Notes: a model not told the origin generated them from the letters alone. DNA of 64,000 bases from an uncultured Candidatus Saccharibacteria bacterium (GCA_964511435.1 CAZEFH010000002.1:8416-72415); one strand, 5' to 3'; shown: positions 39,012 through 46,366, counted from the first letter of the stretch. Program-made: numbers and translations.

Positions 39012-39767
39012 TTGGAGACAACTATGAAGAATCGTGCCGCTATTATCCTTGCCGCTGGTAAGGGTACTCGAATGAAATCTGATCTCCCCAAGGTGCTGCA
39101 CCAAGTTGGCGGGAAAGCAATGGTCAATCACGTGCTTGAGTCTGCACATGAAGCAAATCTTGCTAAGGTGGTTGTTGTTACTGGTCATATGGCAAAATCG
39201 GTTGAAGATACTCTGTGCAAAGAGGCGACTTGTGTTTTTCAGGACCAGCAGCTTGGTACTGGTCACGCAGTTCTGATTACTGAGAAAAATTTTCCTGACC
39301 CAGAAACATCCGTTGTAGTTCTCTGCGGTGATGCACCACTAGTAAAGGCGGCGACCATTACGAAACTTATGGACTACCATGAATCAGTTGGCGCCGACGC
39401 AACAGTCCTGACAGCAGTTGTTAGCGACCCATTCGGATACGGGAGAATTGTTCGCGACGCTGAGGGGCACCTGGAAAAAATAGTCGAAGAAAAAGATGCC
39501 ACAGATGAAGAAAAGCAGATCAGGGAGATAAACACTGGCACATACTGCTTCCGGTCGGGCGCTCTCTTTGACGCTCTAAAGCAGGTTGGGAACAATAATG
39601 CTCAGGGTGAATATTACCTACCAGACACCCTTGAAATTATTCGTGAGCACGGCGGTACTATCAGGGTAATGAGCGACAGTGATGCCACAGAAGTGCTTGG
39701 CGTAAATACCCTAGAGCAACTTGCGGAAGTTGAGAAAATATATCAAGCCAGAAAGGGGAATAAATAA
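39012..39767 (+). CDS. Sugar-1-phosphate nucleotidyltransferase, GlmU N-terminal-domain-like (no acetyltransferase LbH domain)
   Basis: The N-terminus is AIILAAGKGTRMKSDLPKVLH.VGGK.M. The length is only 251 aa. Confidence 0.55.
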   Translation: METTMKNRAAIILAAGKGTRMKSDLPKVLHQVGGKAMVNHVLESAHEANLAKVVVVTGHMAKSVEDTLCKEATCVFQDQQLGTGHAVLITEKNFPDPETSVVVLCGDAPLVKAATITKLMDYHESVGADATVLTAVVSDPFGYGRIVRDAEGHLEKIVEEKDATDEEKQIREINTGTYCFRSGALFDALKQVGNNNAQGEYYLPDTLEIIREHGGTIRVMSDSDATEVLGVNTLEQLAEVEKIYQARKGNK

Positions 39768-40675
39768 TGAATGCATATGCAATAGGACACAAGAACCCAG
39801 ATACTGACTCAGTGGTCGCAGCAATCGCTTTTTCTACCATCCACGAAGGTTTTGTCCCAGCTGTTGCTTGCGAAATCAATAAAGAGACATCATATTTGCT
39901 AAATAGATTTGGCTTTACTATACCAGTTCTGCTCCCAGCAGAAGAGAAGAAGGTGGCGCTTGTTGATACCAATAATCCAGAGGAATTTGCTGATAATCTC
40001 AAGGAAGACGAAATAGTATCGATAGTCGATCACCACAAAATGGGTGGAATCAAGACGGCTGAGCCGGTTGTTGTGACTATTCGTGTCGTTGGCTCTACCA
40101 ACACCGTTCTCTACGAGCTAGGCAAAAAAGAGAGTATTAGTTTCGATGCTAGGCTGGCCAGCATCATGATTGGGGCGATTGTTTCCGATACCCTTAATCT
40201 TACTTCTCCTACCACGACGGATGCAGACAGGACCGCCGTAGAAGAGCTAAATATGGTCGCAAATCTAGATATTCAGCAGTTGGCTGATGAAATGTTCGCG
40301 GCAAAGTCAGACATTTCTGATATCAGCACAGCCGAGCTACTCGGGAAGGACTATAAAGAGTTTGAAGTAAATGGCAAGAAGGTCGGGGTTGGAGTCTGGG
40401 AAACCGTTAAGCCAGAGATGGTGCTCGAGCGTAAATCAGAAATTCTAGCCGAGCTCGCACAGAAGAAGCAGGCAGAGGGACTCGCTGTGATTGTATTCGC
40501 CTGTGTTGATATTCTGGCGGCAAAAAGTGATTTCTTTGTAGTTTCTACAGACGAACAGATAATGCTAGAAAATATTTATGGAGTAAAGACGGTTGATTCT
40601 ATTCTCACTGCCGAGGGAGTGGTTTCTCGCAAGAAACAGATGAACCCGCAGATTACCGATTATCTCTCGAAGTAG
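39767..40675 (+). CDS. ppaC: Manganese-dependent inorganic pyrophosphatase (family II, DHH/DHHA2)
   Basis: The N-terminus is GHKNPDTDSVVAAIAF with a VDHHK motif. The length is 302 aa. The start shares one base with the upstream stop (TAATG). Confidence 0.7.
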   Translation: MNAYAIGHKNPDTDSVVAAIAFSTIHEGFVPAVACEINKETSYLLNRFGFTIPVLLPAEEKKVALVDTNNPEEFADNLKEDEIVSIVDHHKMGGIKTAEPVVVTIRVVGSTNTVLYELGKKESISFDARLASIMIGAIVSDTLNLTSPTTTDADRTAVEELNMVANLDIQQLADEMFAAKSDISDISTAELLGKDYKEFEVNGKKVGVGVWETVKPEMVLERKSEILAELAQKKQAEGLAVIVFACVDILAAKSDFFVVSTDEQIMLENIYGVKTVDSILTAEGVVSRKKQMNPQITDYLSK

Positions 40676-40906: not shown

Positions 40907-41252
40907 AGCCCTCAGGCTTACTGACAATCGAGATTTTCAAAATGTATATAGGCGCGGTCGTTATAATGCGACCGCGCTTCTTAGTGTAAACGTCCTTGCT
41001 AGTCGTGGTGGAGCGACTAAGATTGGTGTCGTTGCGAGTAAGAAGGCAGCTAAAAAGGCTCATGACCGTAATGCAGTGAAGCGTAAAGTGCGCGAAGCAG
41101 CTAGGCTTGCATATTCTAGGCTGAAGCCAGGCAACAATGTCGTAATTACAATTAAGGCACCAGCCCTTACTGCCGACTATAAAACTCTTGAGAAGGACTT
41201 GCTTGGTTCATTTAAGCGACTCGGACTTTTTACTGATGAAAGCTCTAAATAA
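40896..41252 (+). CDS. rnpA: Ribonuclease P protein component
   Basis: A basic 118-aa protein directly after rpmH. The R..L..N..F..V...G motif region is present. Confidence 0.8.
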
Positions 41253-41523
41253 GATAATTCGGTGGCCGTTTAAGGCACTAATTACCCTGTATCAGAAGAC
41301 TATATCTCCTGACCATGGGATTATTTCTGGCTTCTTTCCTCATGGATACTGCAGGTTTTCTCCAACTTGCTCGGAGTATACCAAGCAAGCGATTGATAAA
41401 CATGGTGTAGTGCTCGGCACGGTAATGGGAAGCTGGCGCATACTTCGATGTAATCCCTGGTCTCGTGGTGGCAATGATCCAGTGCCCGATAAGCCACTCG
41501 AGGCATTTAAGAAAAGTAAATAG
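41236..41523 (+). CDS. yidD: Membrane protein insertion efficiency factor YidD
   Basis: The motif is PTCSEY...AI..HG...G..LG..RI.RC.P, with a start at the MKALNK ATG. Confidence 0.8.
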
Positions 41524-41531
41524 AACGAAAA

Positions 41532-41560
41532 CTGCCCCGCACGCAAATGGGGCAGTTTCC
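41532..41560. terminator. Rho-independent terminator hairpin after yidD (CTGCCCC, 10-nt loop, GGGGCAG, then TTTCC)
   Basis: A 7-bp perfect stem followed by a T-run. It also abuts the end of the minus-strand high-GC operon. Confidence 0.6.
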
Positions 41561-41595
41561 TTACTTGCAGGCGGGGCAGATGCACGCGTGGTGCG

Positions 41596-41964
41596 CTAGC
41601 TGGACGGAACGAACTCGAGCCTCGCAGCGTAGTCGCGGTTCACGCGGCAGGTGTAGAAGTGCGGTGGAGCAATCGGGTCAGCGTACGCAACCACGACGGC
41701 ACGGCCGTTTTCACGATTGGCTGCGACGAAGGCGAGGTCAAACCTGAATCCGTTGATGCTTTCGCCCTCGAAAGGCCCGCCGAGAAGCCAGCCGTTATCC
41801 CGAAGGACGCACTCCAAATCCTCCAGAGAAGGGCCGTAGGTAGCTGCTTTACGAGTGGCAAACTCGGACGCGAGGTAGGGGTGAGTGTCCTTGGCCACCT
41901 TCTCCCTGTTGATCTCGGTGAGGTCTGTGACAAAGGTAGGCCAACTGTGGATCGATCTCAGCAT
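41596..41964 (-). CDS. Hypothetical protein, third gene of the high-GC three-gene operon. A weak barstar-like pattern (..EFA.....YGPSLEDLECVL) is speculative
   Basis: High GC3 codon usage. A GGAGGTGA Shine-Dalgarno lies 7 nt upstream of the ATG at 41964. The gene lies 15 bp after the previous gene's stop. Confidence 0.5.
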   Translation of the reverse strand: MLRSIHSWPTFVTDLTEINREKVAKDTHPYLASEFATRKAATYGPSLEDLECVLRDNGWLLGGPFEGESINGFRFDLAFVAANRENGRAVVVAYADPIAPPHFYTCRVNRDYAARLEFVPSS

Positions 41965-41979
41965 GTAGGGTCACCTCCG

Positions 41980-42435
41980 CTACTCGCGCTCGGGCAATGC
42001 GCCGGTCATCACCGTGAAGCGCTCGAGGTCGAGAACTTCGGTGATGAGGTCGATTGCCAACAAGATCAGAACCTCATGCAGACCTTCGGTGATGTAGAAC
42101 TCGACGCTACGCAGCTCGCCCCTGAAACCATTTGCCCAAGGGAAGCAGACAGCGATCTCTCCGATGACATCGTTGCCATCCCTCTCCAGGACCTCAATCC
42201 AGGAGACGAGTGCGTACTGGTACCCGTCAGGGCCGTAGACCTTGGCGCGCTGGTGTGTCAGGCGATAGTCGCCTTCCGTAAGGGAAGCGCGACACTTCGC
42301 CATTCCTCGTGACAGGTCGATCCGGTGATCTCCGCCCAGGCTCTTGGCCCAGGCGTCGAGACGGGGATCAACCAGATTCAGCTTGTGGCCAGACTTGATC
42401 TCTCCGTAGGCGAAGACGACATGTGTCTCTTCCAC
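41980..42435 (-). CDS. Hypothetical acidic protein, second gene of the high-GC operon
   Basis: The start is GTG and a GGAGGTG Shine-Dalgarno lies 7 nt upstream. GC3 is high. No recognised domain. Confidence 0.5.
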   Translation of the reverse strand: MEETHVVFAYGEIKSGHKLNLVDPRLDAWAKSLGGDHRIDLSRGMAKCRASLTEGDYRLTHQRAKVYGPDGYQYALVSWIEVLERDGNDVIGEIAVCFPWANGFRGELRSVEFYITEGLHEVLILLAIDLITEVLDLERFTVMTGALPERE

Positions 42436-42448
42436 GATGGTACACCTC

Positions 42449-42640
42449 CTACTTCTTCTTGGGAGTGGGGGCGGCCGACATCGTCGGCAGCACCTTGGTC
42501 TGGGGCGGCTTCGGGTCGGCGTTGAACCGACCTATGATGAGCGAGAAGAGTATGCCGAAGACGATAATGCCACCGATGACAATGGCAAACGCCAGGCGGT
42601 TCAGCTCGCCAACCGTACGTTCCTTATCCAACATATTCAC
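42449..42640 (-). CDS. Small single-pass membrane protein (63 aa), first gene of the high-GC operon
   Basis: One TM helix (LAFAIVIGGIIVFGILFSLIIG) is followed by a Pro/Lys-rich tail. The gene has a GAGAGGGG Shine-Dalgarno and a GTG or ATG start. Confidence 0.45.
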   Translation of the reverse strand: MNMLDKERTVGELNRLAFAIVIGGIIVFGILFSLIIGRFNADPKPPQTKVLPTMSAAPTPKKK

Positions 42641-42766
42641 GTGCTTTCCCCTCTCAGTCAGACCCTACCTCGGTAGGGCATTATCTATGAGCAGAACACG
42701 ATATATTATAACAAGTTGGCCAATAAATCAATAGTTTTAAAGCCCGGTCCAATGAATATACTAGAA

Positions 42767-42802
42767 TAAACATTACGACATTCTTGCGAATGTCGTAATG
42801 TA
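42767..42802. promoter_or_regulatory. Palindromic operator-like element (ACATTACGACATTC, 4-nt spacer, GAATGTCGTAATGT) in the divergent region between the high-GC operon and the ArsR-like gene
   Basis: It has perfect 14-bp inverted arms. The same element occurs, reverse-complemented, at 43119..43156. Confidence 0.6.
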
Positions 42803-42818
42803 GTGGTACATTATACTT

Positions 42819-43091
42819 ATGACGAAAACCCCAAAACAACTTGAAAGATATTTTAAAGGAGTATCAAATCACCGGCGGATACAGATTTTGAAATTAATTA
42901 AAGACAGGGGATCTTTAACCTTATTCGATATTTCTGAGACTCTGAATTCGAATATCACAACAATTTCCGAACATACAAGTCGGCTAGCTAAGGCAGGCTT
43001 AATTAACAAGGAATATAAAGGCAAGTTCGTTTTTCACTCCTTGTCTCCCTATGGAGAGATTATGATAGAAAGCTTTGAAAGGTTCTCATAG
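42819..43091 (+). CDS. ArsR/SmtB-family winged-helix transcriptional regulator
   Basis: The motif NHRRIQILKLI...SLTLFDISETLN.NITTISEHTSRLAKAGLI matches the ArsR HTH pattern. It is 90 aa. Confidence 0.7.
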   Translation: MTKTPKQLERYFKGVSNHRRIQILKLIKDRGSLTLFDISETLNSNITTISEHTSRLAKAGLINKEYKGKFVFHSLSPYGEIMIESFERFS

Positions 43092-43118
43092 AAGTAAGTA
43101 GATTCGTGTTTTGTAGTA

Positions 43119-43156
43119 TAAACATTACGACATTCGCAAGAATGTCGTAATGTTTA
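43119..43156. promoter_or_regulatory. Second copy of the palindromic operator (TAAACATTACGACATTC GCAA GAATGTCGTAATGTTTA, 17-bp arms) in the promoter region of the large lipase-like gene
   Basis: A perfect 38-bp palindrome that is the exact reverse complement of the upstream copy. Confidence 0.6.
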
Positions 43157-43213
43157 TATATTGACAATATTTACACATATACTCATAATATAGCCAAATA
43201 ATGGAGGTAAGAG

Positions 43214-46200
43214 GTGGCTTCCATGGGTAAAAATTCAGCTGTGATTTCTTGGTTTGAATCAATCATTAACCAGGAAAATTATTGGAGAAGTGTATTTTAT
43301 GCAGGGCTTACAGTTATAGTGAGTCTTTTTTTGTATTTACCGCAAAAGACATTTGCAGCGGAGTGGGTGAGCATGGGTTTCGAAGATACACAGGTCAGAT
43401 CATATGTAGTTGATCGATATGATAAACAACATATCGTTGTAAATCTCTCGTCTACAAAAAATGGTTTCTATAATTATTATACAAAAGATGGGGGAGATAC
43501 GTGGCAACCAATCCAAGGGGCAAATAGCATATGTGATACGGCGATTCAAAATCGAGGTAATAAGCTGGAGTTTTGGCTTGGTTGTATGGATGGACTGAAA
43601 AGATCAATTGATGGTAGTGATACTTTTCAGACGGTGGTAAATTATGGTAATAACATTGTTTATAATATGTCTTCCTCGGACGATGGAACGCTATATTTTT
43701 CGGCTGCGAATTCTGTCTATAGAGTAAGAGACAGCCTGATTATCGAAAAAACCAACCTGCCAAACACAAGTAGCTCTATCGCGTACATTTCTGTAAACCC
43801 GATTAACAGCAGTGAAGCGTATATTTCCAAAACTGGAACCGGACCAGGAATATACAAGACAAGCGATGCCGGGGGTAATTGGGCTCAAGTTTCTGCGATG
43901 GCGCAGTTTAATAGTGGAATTAATGGTTTATATTTTCTTGGTGACGGTAACCTGTGCATTACGGCCAGCCCCGGTGGTGTTAGTTTTTCGTCAAATGGTG
44001 GCTTTACGTGGAGCAATCTAAAAACACCTGATCCGAGCGGTCAATATGAATCTAATCGTCTGTATTCTGGTGGTCAAAATCCTGATGTTTTGGCAAATGT
44101 GATAATTACCAACTTTACCTTGGCGAATGTAACCCCTAGAATTTACTCTCAGACTGGGGCCAGTACTCTCGATACCGTGGTTTCTCCACTCACATTTAGT
44201 GCTGTCTACCCGGCTGTGTCTCAAGGAGTGACGTTTGTAGTAGGGCGTATTGGGACAAATGGTATTTGGAGAAATGACGGGATAGCTATTCAGCCAGAAT
44301 ATCTCAAGAAGCGACCGGTAATAATTATTCCGGGAATAATGGGGAGCTGGGGTAAAAGTTTTAGTAAAGAGTTGTTTTTAGACCCAATTTTTCACACATA
44401 CGACTCGCTAATCAATTCTTTAGTCGAAAATGGTTTGAGGGAGGATGTGGACTATTTTACATTCCCGTATAACTGGATGCAGGACAACCATCAGTCTGCA
44501 ATTCAACTTAAATATTTTATAGATAAAATCAAAATTAATACTGGCGCTGATAAGGTAAATATTGTTGCTCATAGTATGGGTGGTATAGTTACTCGGGATT
44601 ACGCAGAATCAAGTAATTATGAAAATGATATAGATAAAATAATATTTTTAGGGACGCCTCATTTAGGTAGTCCATCATCATATATTACATGGGAGTCTGG
44701 AAAGGTTGTTTTTGGTAGTGATTTGCTTACAAATGAATTAACAAATTATTTATTTGCTGAAATGGCAAAACAGTTTGGTTATAATAGTCTATTTGACTTT
44801 ATCCGTCACAAAGTCGTATCTGTGGGGCAGCTATTGCCTATTTATGATTATTTGGCAACGAGTTCTGGTGTTTTATTATACCCAAACGGTTACCCTCGAA
44901 ATAACTACTTGGAAAGACTTGATGTAAATAACAATTTACTAATTAGTTTAGGGATTCACGTGACCAACATCATAACGCAAGATATCGAAACCATTAATGG
45001 GTACAAAGTAAGTAATGATGAAGGATCTGATGGCCATTGGGAATTTGGGTTCCCGGAACTCCCAATGATTGGGTTTGGAGATGGTGTTGTTCCAAATAAT
45101 AGCTCAACATTCATCGCAAGCCAAAAACAGGTAATACTGAATGGTGTTGGCCATCGTGAAATAGCCACTAGTGCAACAAGAGAGGTCTTGGTCGCACTTG
45201 GTATAAATGATCCTAAGACTGTAATTGAGGAAACTATAGAAAAGTACTTAATAATTAAGGCATATTCCCCAGTAGACTTTTATGTTATTGCGCCAGATGG
45301 TTTGAAAATTGGCTATAACAAAAATGGAGGAATATTTAACGAAATTACTGACGCCTTTTACTCTGGAGCAGACAGTGCAGCAGAATTTGTTACAATTCCG
45401 AGTCCTCCAGATGGTGAATACCGGATAGTTACGCTGGGTAACTCCTCGGGTTCATATAAGATTGAATCAAGCTATATCGATGATCAGCTGAACAAAGGAT
45501 CTACGACAAGTTACGAGGGTGTCACCAAGGTGGGGTCTGAACAAACCGTCATAACAAATCTCTCTAAAGCAGATTTTGAGACAGAAACAGAAATAGATGA
45601 TCATATTGCACCAGTTACCACTGCATCCATTGATCAATCAGAAATCGAATACAATAAAGGCCCGCTAACAGTTACTCTTTCTGCAACCGATAACGTAAGT
45701 GGTTTAAAGGTAACTCAATATAGTTATGATGGTAGTAATTGGAATGATTACGTCGATCCAGTAACAATCTCTGAAAATGGTACGAACACATTACATTACC
45801 GTTCAGAAGATAATGCCGGCAACGTGGAAGAAACAAAGACACTGGTGGTGAAAATTGATTATACTCCGCCAATGATTACGCTCACAACAGACAAATCAAG
45901 TTATACAAGATATGATAAAGTAAGTCTAAGTTGTGAGGTAATTGATGTATTTTCACAAGTAAAAACCGTTAATCTAGAATTAGATGGAAATCAGATTCAG
46001 TGTAGTAATCAAGAAATTGATGTCTCGAGATTGGCGCTCGGTAGTCATACACTTCACATTGTCGCGACTGATGTAGTTGGGAATGTGGCGGAACAGACCG
46101 TACATTTTAATATAATCGGAACTTCTACTTCATTATTGCTCGACATCAATTCACTGTACTTTGGCAAACAGATTAGTCGAATGCAATACTATCAATACAA

Positions 46201-46366
46201 CGCGCTCTTATCAGTCTATGAATTGATGTCTAGACTAGGCCTGGGAAAACCTGCGAACTCAATTTTGGATGCGTGGTTAAAAATTATTGATAAAGACAAA
46301 AAACTTAAGTTTATTACTGATTACGCGTATAATTTACTTAAAGAGGATATGTTATGGCTAAAGTAA
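43214..46366 (+). CDS. Large secreted alpha/beta-hydrolase (lipase/esterase, PGAP1/DUF676-like) with C-terminal Ig-like / OmpL47-type beta-sandwich repeats
   Basis: It has a signal/TM N-terminus. The nucleophile elbow is VAHSMGG (GxSxG). C-terminal NVSGLKV..YSYDGSNW...HYRSEDNAGNVE repeats are typical of chitobiase-type Ig-like domains. Confidence 0.6.
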   Translation: MASMGKNSAVISWFESIINQENYWRSVFYAGLTVIVSLFLYLPQKTFAAEWVSMGFEDTQVRSYVVDRYDKQHIVVNLSSTKNGFYNYYTKDGGDTWQPIQGANSICDTAIQNRGNKLEFWLGCMDGLKRSIDGSDTFQTVVNYGNNIVYNMSSSDDGTLYFSAANSVYRVRDSLIIEKTNLPNTSSSIAYISVNPINSSEAYISKTGTGPGIYKTSDAGGNWAQVSAMAQFNSGINGLYFLGDGNLCITASPGGVSFSSNGGFTWSNLKTPDPSGQYESNRLYSGGQNPDVLANVIITNFTLANVTPRIYSQTGASTLDTVVSPLTFSAVYPAVSQGVTFVVGRIGTNGIWRNDGIAIQPEYLKKRPVIIIPGIMGSWGKSFSKELFLDPIFHTYDSLINSLVENGLREDVDYFTFPYNWMQDNHQSAIQLKYFIDKIKINTGADKVNIVAHSMGGIVTRDYAESSNYENDIDKIIFLGTPHLGSPSSYITWESGKVVFGSDLLTNELTNYLFAEMAKQFGYNSLFDFIRHKVVSVGQLLPIYDYLATSSGVLLYPNGYPRNNYLERLDVNNNLLISLGIHVTNIITQDIETINGYKVSNDEGSDGHWEFGFPELPMIGFGDGVVPNNSSTFIASQKQVILNGVGHREIATSATREVLVALGINDPKTVIEETIEKYLIIKAYSPVDFYVIAPDGLKIGYNKNGGIFNEITDAFYSGADSAAEFVTIPSPPDGEYRIVTLGNSSGSYKIESSYIDDQLNKGSTTSYEGVTKVGSEQTVITNLSKADFETETEIDDHIAPVTTASIDQSEIEYNKGPLTVTLSATDNVSGLKVTQYSYDGSNWNDYVDPVTISENGTNTLHYRSEDNAGNVEETKTLVVKIDYTPPMITLTTDKSSYTRYDKVSLSCEVIDVFSQVKTVNLELDGNQIQCSNQEIDVSRLALGSHTLHIVATDVVGNVAEQTVHFNIIGTSTSLLLDINSLYFGKQISRMQYYQYNALLSVYELMSRLGLGKPANSILDAWLKIIDKDKKLKFITDYAYNLLKEDMLWLK

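Follow-up and report, generated by a model that had tools for sequence, protein, structure and literature searches.

A 64,000-nt stretch of DNA from an uncultured Candidatus Saccharibacteria bacterium (the window, in which all coordinates are counted from the first letter) carries a small gene for a 90-aa winged-helix regulator of the ArsR/SmtB type, bracketed by two copies of a long palindrome, here called O1 and O2. Judged by comparison of the locus with its relatives, the palindromes are very probably the operators of the regulator that is encoded between them. The reading in which the two sites are operators and the regulator acts on its own promoter is well supported, and we put its probability at roughly three in four. 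It concerns the following features.

42770 to 42801, no strand: putative operator O1, four hexamers (ACATTA-cg-ACATTC-ttgc-GAATGT-cg-TAATGT), assigned by its weight-matrix score.
42784 to 42812, plus strand: predicted promoter of the regulator gene, with -35 TTGCGA (42784-42789), 17 nt, -10 TACATT (42807-42812), 6 nt and the ATG at 42819.
42819 to 43091, plus strand: gene for the 90-aa ArsR/SmtB-like winged-helix regulator, assigned by Pfam matches and an AlphaFold2 (AF2) model.
43117 to 43158 (core 43122-43153), no strand: putative operator O2, centre GCAA, the exact reverse complement of O1.

O1 reads ACATTACGACATTC-TTGC-GAATGTCGTAATGT and the core of O2 reads ACATTACGACATTC-GCAA-GAATGTCGTAATGT, each a perfect 14-N4-14 palindrome, and a repeat search joins them in a 36-nt inverted repeat with 100% complementarity (42766-42801 against 43122-43157). 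An earlier note on this DNA had reported two palindromes at these positions that are exact reverse complements of each other, and both the sequence and the repeat search bear this out. The arms of the second copy do extend beyond 14 bp, as was also claimed, although to 19 nt (43117-43135 and 43140-43158) rather than the 17 bp originally given; those of O1 are perfect over 14 nt. The exact half-site occurs four times in the window, always within O1 or O2, and five further matches with three mismatches each are at the level given by shuffles. With a symmetrised weight matrix built from 132 unique sites of the family, O1 and O2 each reach 29.2 bits, with 1.0 for the runner-up in the 64 kb and a maximum of 4.6 bits in 20 shuffled windows. 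Outside O1 and O2 the window has no half-site, so that no wider regulon is visible in these 64 kb.

The protein is ArsR/SmtB-like, in line with the ArsR-family assignment of the earlier note. It scores 30.7 bits with Pfam HTH_5 (ArsR), against a cut-off of 22, and also matches HTH_24 and MarR above their gathering scores. Its AF2 model, with a predicted local distance difference test (pLDDT) score of 96.3, shows the ArsR fold order a1-a2-a3-aR-b1-b2-a5 (helices at residues 5-15, 18-30, 35-42, 46-58 and 77-87, strands at 62-67 and 70-75). Scores for the NCBIfam models of ArsR/SmtB (NF033788, 46.4 bits against a cut-off of 55) and of the SdpR subfamily (42.6 against 100) fall below threshold. 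The closest solved relatives are HlyU, Lmo1102, CadC and CzrA, with ArsR also among the PDB sequence matches, and the best PDB match to the family profile is HlyU (4k2e, E = 1.1e-8). A search for a metal or metalloid site found no Cys in the 90 residues and no His/Asp ligand set in a5 (77-87); such a site defines only the metal-sensing members of ArsR/SmtB and not the fold family. Conservation among the homologues sets in at residue 3 of the regulator (KTxKQLERYFKGV...), an argument that the gene does start at the ATG at 42819.

Homologues of about 90 aa and 45-75% identity come from genomes and metagenomes of the candidate phyla radiation (CPR, or Patescibacteria). A genome scan, from which 80 loci were kept, placed relatives in 137 species-level genomes, all of Patescibacteria type, with Saccharibacteria, Paceibacterota and the Doudna-, Giovannoni-, Uhr-, Sung-, Kaiser-, Zambryski- and Lloydbacteria among the lineages; a full HMMER search gave 243 clusters (50% identity) at E <= 1e-10. 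The bracket was counted in 84 non-redundant Patescibacteria loci. The palindrome of the family has the consensus ACAACATTCCAACATTCTG followed by CAGAATGTTGGAATGTTGT and can be written as A(C/T)ATTC-N2-A(C/T)ATTC-N4-GAAT(G/A)T-N2-GAAT(G/A)T, with a spacing of 6-2-6-4-6-2-6 and a form that the window sites share. It lies upstream of the homologous gene in 77 of the 84 loci, and a second copy lies at the gene's 3' end in 72. This second copy overlaps the stop codon of the regulator in 50 of the 72, typically as ACA-TTC-TAA (Thr-Phe-stop), and starts at most 10 nt from it in 11 more (61/72 in total); O2 of the window begins 33 nt past the stop. Thirty-two further sites lie in the locus flanks, 29 of them intergenic. 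On this comparative evidence, a gene bracketed by two sites is the standard architecture of the regulator family and not a local curiosity.

A conserved downstream target of the 3' site was considered and rejected for the family as a whole, as the neighbours are diverse (phosphoglycerate mutase, NYN, TspO and other unrelated genes). Helical phasing between O1 and O2 was likewise discarded, the distance between the operators varying from about 300 to 340 bp across the family. Some loci carry additional sites: there are four to six in each of L019, L077, L067, L011 and L021, and in L048 (1143-4293) seven are spread over about 3 kb, with each of six genes in a row preceded by one (a membrane-anchored HTH_11 protein, a 71-aa open reading frame (ORF), an NYN-domain protein, an uncharacterised 331-aa protein, the regulator and TspO). 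The latter array may represent a clustered regulon or a cassette-like array. Some of the metagenome-assembled genomes that bear the cassette (L012, L018, L038, L040, L047, L054, L066 and L021) are titled Gammaproteobacteria, Verrucomicrobiota, Bdellovibrionales or Pacearchaeota; mis-binning or mislabelling of the contigs is the probable cause.

The manner in which the sites vary points to recognition by a protein. Among 133 unique sites, nine of the 14 arm positions are nearly invariant, namely hexamer positions 3-6 of both hexamers and position 1 of the inner hexamer. At the variable arm positions 2, 7, 8 and 10 (hexamer position 2 and the N2 spacers), the two arms fail to complement each other in 25-48% of sites. 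Sequence is thus kept where pairing is not, which is the signature of a protein site. In addition, residue 69, at the tip of the wing in the AF2 model, tracks the base at position 2 of the inner hexamers. In counts that ignore phylogeny, this base is C in 198 of 238 hexamers of loci that encode Arg69, in all 8 of those with Lys69 (the window included), and in only 5 of 66 where residue 69 is Asn, Leu, Gln, Ser, Thr or Val; the variants other than Arg and Lys are found in several different sequence backgrounds. Taken together, family-wide conservation, the direct repeats, the position at promoters and the residue-69 covariation provide good evidence that the regulator protein itself reads the site. 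The proposal that the palindromes are winged-helix operators is therefore reinforced, with sites that are conserved with the gene across the superphylum and that appear to covary with a residue of the wing.

O1 lies on the predicted promoter of the regulator gene. The -35 hexamer TTGCGA consists of the central TTGC of O1 plus GA, the centre of O1 is 33.5 bp upstream of the ATG, and no Shine-Dalgarno motif can be read in the sequence before the gene. The same promoter geometry is found in the closest relative, L001 (TTGCGA-17-TAATAT-6-ATG), and in L005 (TTGAGA-17-TACAAT-6-ATG). Across the family the operator centre is mostly 30-50 bp upstream of the start; a Shine-Dalgarno-like 4-mer is present in only 4 of 67 loci, and a -10-like hexamer, often with an extended TGn, ends 4-9 nt before the start in 38 of the 67. 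We predict that the regulator mRNA is leaderless. Because O1 covers the -35 of the regulator gene, negative autoregulation is the straightforward inference, and the predicted control of the regulator by itself would agree with this placement. It is only partly true, however, that the operator centre supplies the -35: the centres are TGCA, TTGA, TCAA and others, with no orientation bias between site 1 and site 2, and in many loci the -35 is, by our interpretation, TTGGAA of the right arm.

O2 is followed by a promoter and a large gene.

43161 to 43189, plus strand: predicted sigma-70-type promoter of the hydrolase gene, TTGACA-17-CATAAT, scoring 11/12 in a scan and conserved in six lineages.
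43214 to 46366, plus strand: gene for a 1050-aa secreted or surface multidomain alpha/beta-hydrolase, start GTG, assigned by domain matches.

The hydrolase combines an LCAT/PGAP1/Lipase_2 core with an AHSMGG motif and Ig-like and OmpL47-type barrel domains. The earlier note had placed O2 60 bp upstream of this lipase-like gene, and the distance from the end of O2 to the GTG at 43214 is indeed 60 nt. The 14-nt arm of O2 ends 7 bp, and the extended palindrome 2 bp, before the -35 of the hydrolase promoter. After the promoter the window has the leader AGCCAAATAA and then the Shine-Dalgarno sequence GGAGG (43203-43207). An orthologue of the hydrolase adjoins the regulator in five further lineages, in tandem in L001 and L089, as in the window, and divergently in L005, L090 and L091; in L005 a single operator is common to both genes. 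In all six lineages the operator lies 6-23 bp upstream of TTGACA-17/18-CATAAT-AAAGCCATAAA (alignment A3). The -10 and leader, CATAAT-AAAGCCATAAA, and the Shine-Dalgarno sequence (window 43184-43207) are kept although the coding DNA is only about 65-73% identical, and this conserved leader may have a function of its own.

Since the linkage of regulator, operator and hydrolase is kept in two arrangements, the hydrolase can be argued to be a target in this clade, and we lean, by a little over even odds, towards control of the hydrolase by the regulator. L090 and L091 nevertheless keep the 3' site although their hydrolase is on the other side. A site that is kept whatever its neighbour belongs to the regulator unit, but in the tandem loci the nearness of O2 to the hydrolase promoter may couple the two genes. 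The claim that the regulator gates the hydrolase is thus upheld in part: the linkage in six lineages speaks for it, whereas O2 is not specifically a lipase operator, the 3' copy being family-wide, and gating by simple occlusion is not supported by a site that lies clear of the core promoter, where the sign of the effect could be either way.

Control of the hydrolase could possibly take the form of repression, the default in this family and compatible with a site that abuts the -35, or of activation resembling that by HlyU. A regulator that activates the hydrolase promoter from O2, as HlyU would, and still represses itself at O1 is the strongest of the alternatives and in our view an unlikely one. 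The placement of the operator in all six lineages, ending 6-23 bp upstream of the -35 and never on the core promoter, would suit an activator, and no solved relative is closer in sequence (E = 1e-8) than HlyU, whose depositors call it a transcriptional activator. Yet a hydrolase promoter so near to consensus (11/12) should need no activator, the spacing from site to -35 varies by 16 bp without helical periodicity, and in the window a gap of only 2 bp between the extended palindrome and the -35 speaks rather for interference with RNA polymerase or its alpha subunit.

A different role for the palindromes might be read from inversions of the segment between them. The regulator gene is inverted relative to ppaC and the hydrolase between loci of the window/L001 type and those of the L005/L090 type, and a second inversion separates L021 from L027 (80% DNA identity), with its breakpoint at the outer edge of the palindrome. 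Where paralogues occur in one genome, their homology begins precisely where site 1 starts and stops where site 2 ends, and the two sites of one locus resemble each other more closely than do sites of different loci, at unconstrained positions too (6.3 against 4.4 of 8). These comparisons indicate that, in the course of evolution, the bracketed gene has changed its orientation in place, with the palindromes as breakpoints. As the operators are palindromic, a flip keeps an operator and a -35-like sequence at the 5' end of the gene, which can therefore tolerate either orientation. The segment may be a self-contained cassette that works either way round, and there is a small chance that flips, by recombination between the operators, still switch the neighbour that it faces or reads into, the hydrolase or a hypervariable high-GC block; in that case it would be a recombinase-independent inverton that carries a regulator and is conserved across the CPR.

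Carried further, the palindromes could be primarily recombination substrates, with protein binding secondary, and the segment an invertible or mobile cassette whose flips switch the neighbour faced (the hydrolase or the high-GC block described below). The window has one feature of an inverton, with copies of a perfect 36-nt inverted repeat 320 nt apart, and the two sets of inversions, the confined paralogue homology, the likeness of sites within a locus, the solitary sites and site-gene-site arrays of some loci (L048) and the breakage of assemblies inside the palindrome would all fit such a role. Against this, no recombinase or transposase gene was found among the neighbours scanned within about 6-10 kb of the window locus, which encode glycosyltransferases, ppaC, the hydrolase, VanW, carbonic anhydrase-like proteins and ATP synthase and count as housekeeping neighbours, and no direct repeat that could be a target-site duplication flanks 42766 and 43157. 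There are only two copies in the window, and none of 2.9 million viral contigs contains the consensus site. Selection on the functional parts alone would also leave homology limited to the gene and its sites, and inversions over evolutionary time do not demonstrate a switch in a living population. Overall, we consider recombination as the primary role improbable. Two related candidates fail: an element like a miniature inverted-repeat transposable element or an insertion sequence (no target-site duplication, no transposase, two copies only in 64 kb and none in the viral contigs), and a phage origin, the viral contigs having yielded one relative of the regulator protein and no consensus site.

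It is equally improbable that the palindromes act mainly as RNA hairpins, that is, as (possibly bidirectional) intrinsic terminators or mRNA-stabilising stem-loops that punctuate the small gene. Their predicted folds are stable (-27.4 kcal/mol for the plus strand of O2, -19.6 and -20.8 for O1; z-scores -5.7 to -8.7), the 3' copy sits on or just past the stop codon in 61 of 72 loci and is retained in 15 of the 21 loci whose neighbour is convergent, and a T-rich hexamer comes after about 39% of the 3' copies as opposed to 26% of those at the 5' end, a weak enrichment. TTATTCTAGT follows O1 on the minus strand, where a simple scan flags O1 as terminator-like, but no minus-strand gene ends there. 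The plus strand of O2, with 5 G-C among its 14 core pairs and the tail TATATTGAC, is not flagged, so the earlier statement that no T-run follows the palindromes holds for O2 on this strand and needs a small qualification for O1 on the other. Moreover, the hexamer sequence is kept across the superphylum whereas the pairing is not (mismatches in up to 48% of sites), a direct hexamer repeat within each arm would be meaningless for a hairpin, and the wing residue of the protein covaries with the site. O1 lies on a promoter, and in L005 and L091 the corresponding site lies between divergent gene starts with nothing to terminate; after yidD, the same genome appears to use an ordinary GC-rich terminator (about 41533-41565). 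A search of Rfam returned no family and only sub-threshold, microRNA-like hairpin noise. The possibility raised earlier that the palindromes are terminator hairpins, which would have spoken against operators, thus finds stable folds, but an O2 that lacks a T-run and a sequence that outlasts its pairing. A secondary terminator role for O2 is possible.

Returning to the palindromes as autoregulatory operators, several observations weigh against this view and temper the probability given to it. All of its support is comparative, and the counts for residue 69 share the neglect of phylogeny noted above. The arms do fold into stable hairpins (-19.6 to -27.4 kcal/mol). Where the neighbour is co-directional, 55 of 60 loci retain the 3' site. 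So do 15 of 21 where it is convergent, and control of a downstream gene therefore cannot be the main role of O2. In the six hydrolase lineages the operator never overlaps the core promoter, which is not the classical position of a repressor, and, measured from its centre to the first base of the -35, it is 23.5-39.5 bp upstream with no helical phase. The window sites are also weaker than most sites of the family (29 against 40-50 bits). All four of their outer hexamers are ACATTA and not ACATTC (42770-42775, 42796-42801, 43122-43127 and 43148-43153), at a position, the sixth of the hexamer, where C is nearly invariant in the family (263/266). The coordinated change suggests altered specificity or weakened outer contacts in this lineage.

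From conservation, position and covariation, then, we infer the following picture of binding, stoichiometry, repression and looping. Each operator, with two direct and two inverted hexamers, would be long enough for two dimers. Regulator bound at O1 would cover the -35 and shut off its own leaderless gene. O2, 352 bp away, would most likely cooperate with O1, perhaps through looping, and most likely insulate the regulator unit from neighbouring transcription. In this lineage O2 would, again most likely, place the regulator 7 bp upstream of the hydrolase -35 and so couple that gene to the regulator.

On the other side of O1 lies a block of unusual composition.

41596 to 42640, minus strand: high-GC block of three ORFs (63, 151 and 122 aa), 57-59% GC in a window of 42.5% GC.
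42705 to 42713, minus strand: candidate extended -10 of the block, TGTTATAAT, inferred from the sequence and about 60 bp from O1.
39767 to 40675: ppaC (DHH family), followed by rpmH, rnpA and yidD, these three assigned from their translations.

None of the three block ORFs matches Pfam, NCBIfam or PHROG, and homologue searches with the 151-aa and 122-aa proteins returned only the proteins themselves. In L001, yidD is followed directly by the operator and the regulator without a high-GC block, which indicates that the block is not needed for the operator. In L089, whose regulator is 66% identical, a block of 59-61% GC lies at the same place and on the same strand (844-2333; ORFs of 77, 251 and 138 aa), with a similar ACTTGGTTATTAT at the place corresponding to the candidate -10. 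No homology between the two blocks was detectable by tblastx (one weak match, E = 0.002), although the small membrane proteins of both have similar C-terminal tails. Two lineages with genomes of about 40% GC thus have a block between yidD and the regulator with the same gene number, order, strand and GC content. The idea of a simple foreign insertion is weakened by this analogous block in L089, which also makes a functional link of the block to the regulator possible. Control of the high-GC operon by the palindrome, as the earlier note had it, was not borne out, given a candidate promoter about 60 bp away and an operator without a block in L001. Between the convergent yidD and last block ORF lies a GC-rich stem-loop, CTGCCCC...GGGGCAG (41533-41565). 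T-rich stretches occur on both of its strands, and it resembles a bidirectional terminator of the ordinary kind, unlike the AT-rich operator palindromes. Downstream of the hydrolase are a 133-aa ORF, a DUF3006 protein and a VanW protein.

An exact-protein look-up returned no record of the 90-aa sequence. Short-read assemblies break inside the palindrome, as in L088 (equivalent to window 41056-42796) and at the end of L091 at 4302. Such breaks probably explain the absent record for the source sample; the regulator was probably missed in the records since a short unitig between repeats is not gene-called, and cassettes of this kind are likely to be under-assembled in metagenomes. A scan of metagenomes for the exact arms of the window operator found matches solely inside ribD of an unrelated bacterium, where ACATTACGACATTC-TGCA-GAATGTCGTAATGT lies in frame (L094 2079-2110, L093 900-931 and L095 10628-10659; host 54-62% GC). 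This copy encodes KTLRHSAECRNV in a variable linker, with no regulator gene or other site nearby, and the chance expectation of such a match (28 fixed bases) is far below 1.

The locus most closely recalls the ArsR/SmtB autorepressors (SmtB, CzrA, CadC and ArsR), which classically have a long inverted-repeat operator on the promoter of their own gene. It shares with them the small winged helix of the order a1-a2-a3-aR-b1-b2-a5, the match to Pfam HTH_5 and, in silico, such an operator on its own predicted promoter. The 12-2-12 sites of SmtB and CzrA have been reported to take more than one dimer, and the length of the window site suggests the same. Unlike these proteins, the window regulator lacks Cys and the metal ligands of a3/a5 and scores below the NCBIfam cut-off; its 14-4-14 operator of four hexamers, its predicted leaderless mRNA and its restriction to Patescibacteria-type genomes also set it apart, and we know of no ArsR/SmtB system with a second operator at the gene's 3' end, often on the stop codon. 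HlyU, a non-metal member of the family, regulates secreted haemolysin and toxin genes in Vibrio, as an activator or anti-silencer from far upstream sites. The lack of metal sensing and the palindromes upstream of a gene for a secreted effector, here a hydrolase, are shared, but the similarity is remote, and in the window the -35 of the regulator gene is covered by one of the sites and there is no known silencer.

Like the lac O1/O2 and gal OE/OI looping systems, the window pairs an operator at the promoter with an equivalent one that lies a few hundred bp further on, at or within the transcribed region. It differs from them in showing no evidence of tetramerisation, in its variable spacing (about 300-340 bp) without phase and in having the second operator at the end of its own gene. 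With invertons it has in common the 36-bp inverted repeat around a short segment, the two orientations among relatives and the breakpoints at the repeats; it has no nearby invertase, its segment holds a whole gene and not just a promoter, and its orientations are known between lineages. Literature searches on the regulator, the operator and the motif strings found nothing relevant, and the pairing of regulator and site has apparently not yet been described. Relative to what is known and to the literature found, the new elements would be the four-hexamer 14-4-14 operator extending across a superphylum, the built-in leaderless promoter, the second operator at the 3' end and the inversion-prone cassette.

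To our knowledge, almost nothing is known of gene regulation in the CPR, whose genomes are tiny, with few regulators and no genetics. A CPR regulator and operator that can be read from sequence offer something concrete to test: a weight matrix, predicted promoters and a predicted contact residue. The two-operator bracket, with one operator often on the stop codon, and its repeated inversion would be unusual for an ArsR-type repressor. CPR episymbionts are thought to depend on host lipids, and the tie seen here between the regulator and a large secreted lipase-like hydrolase is of interest in view of that supposed dependence.

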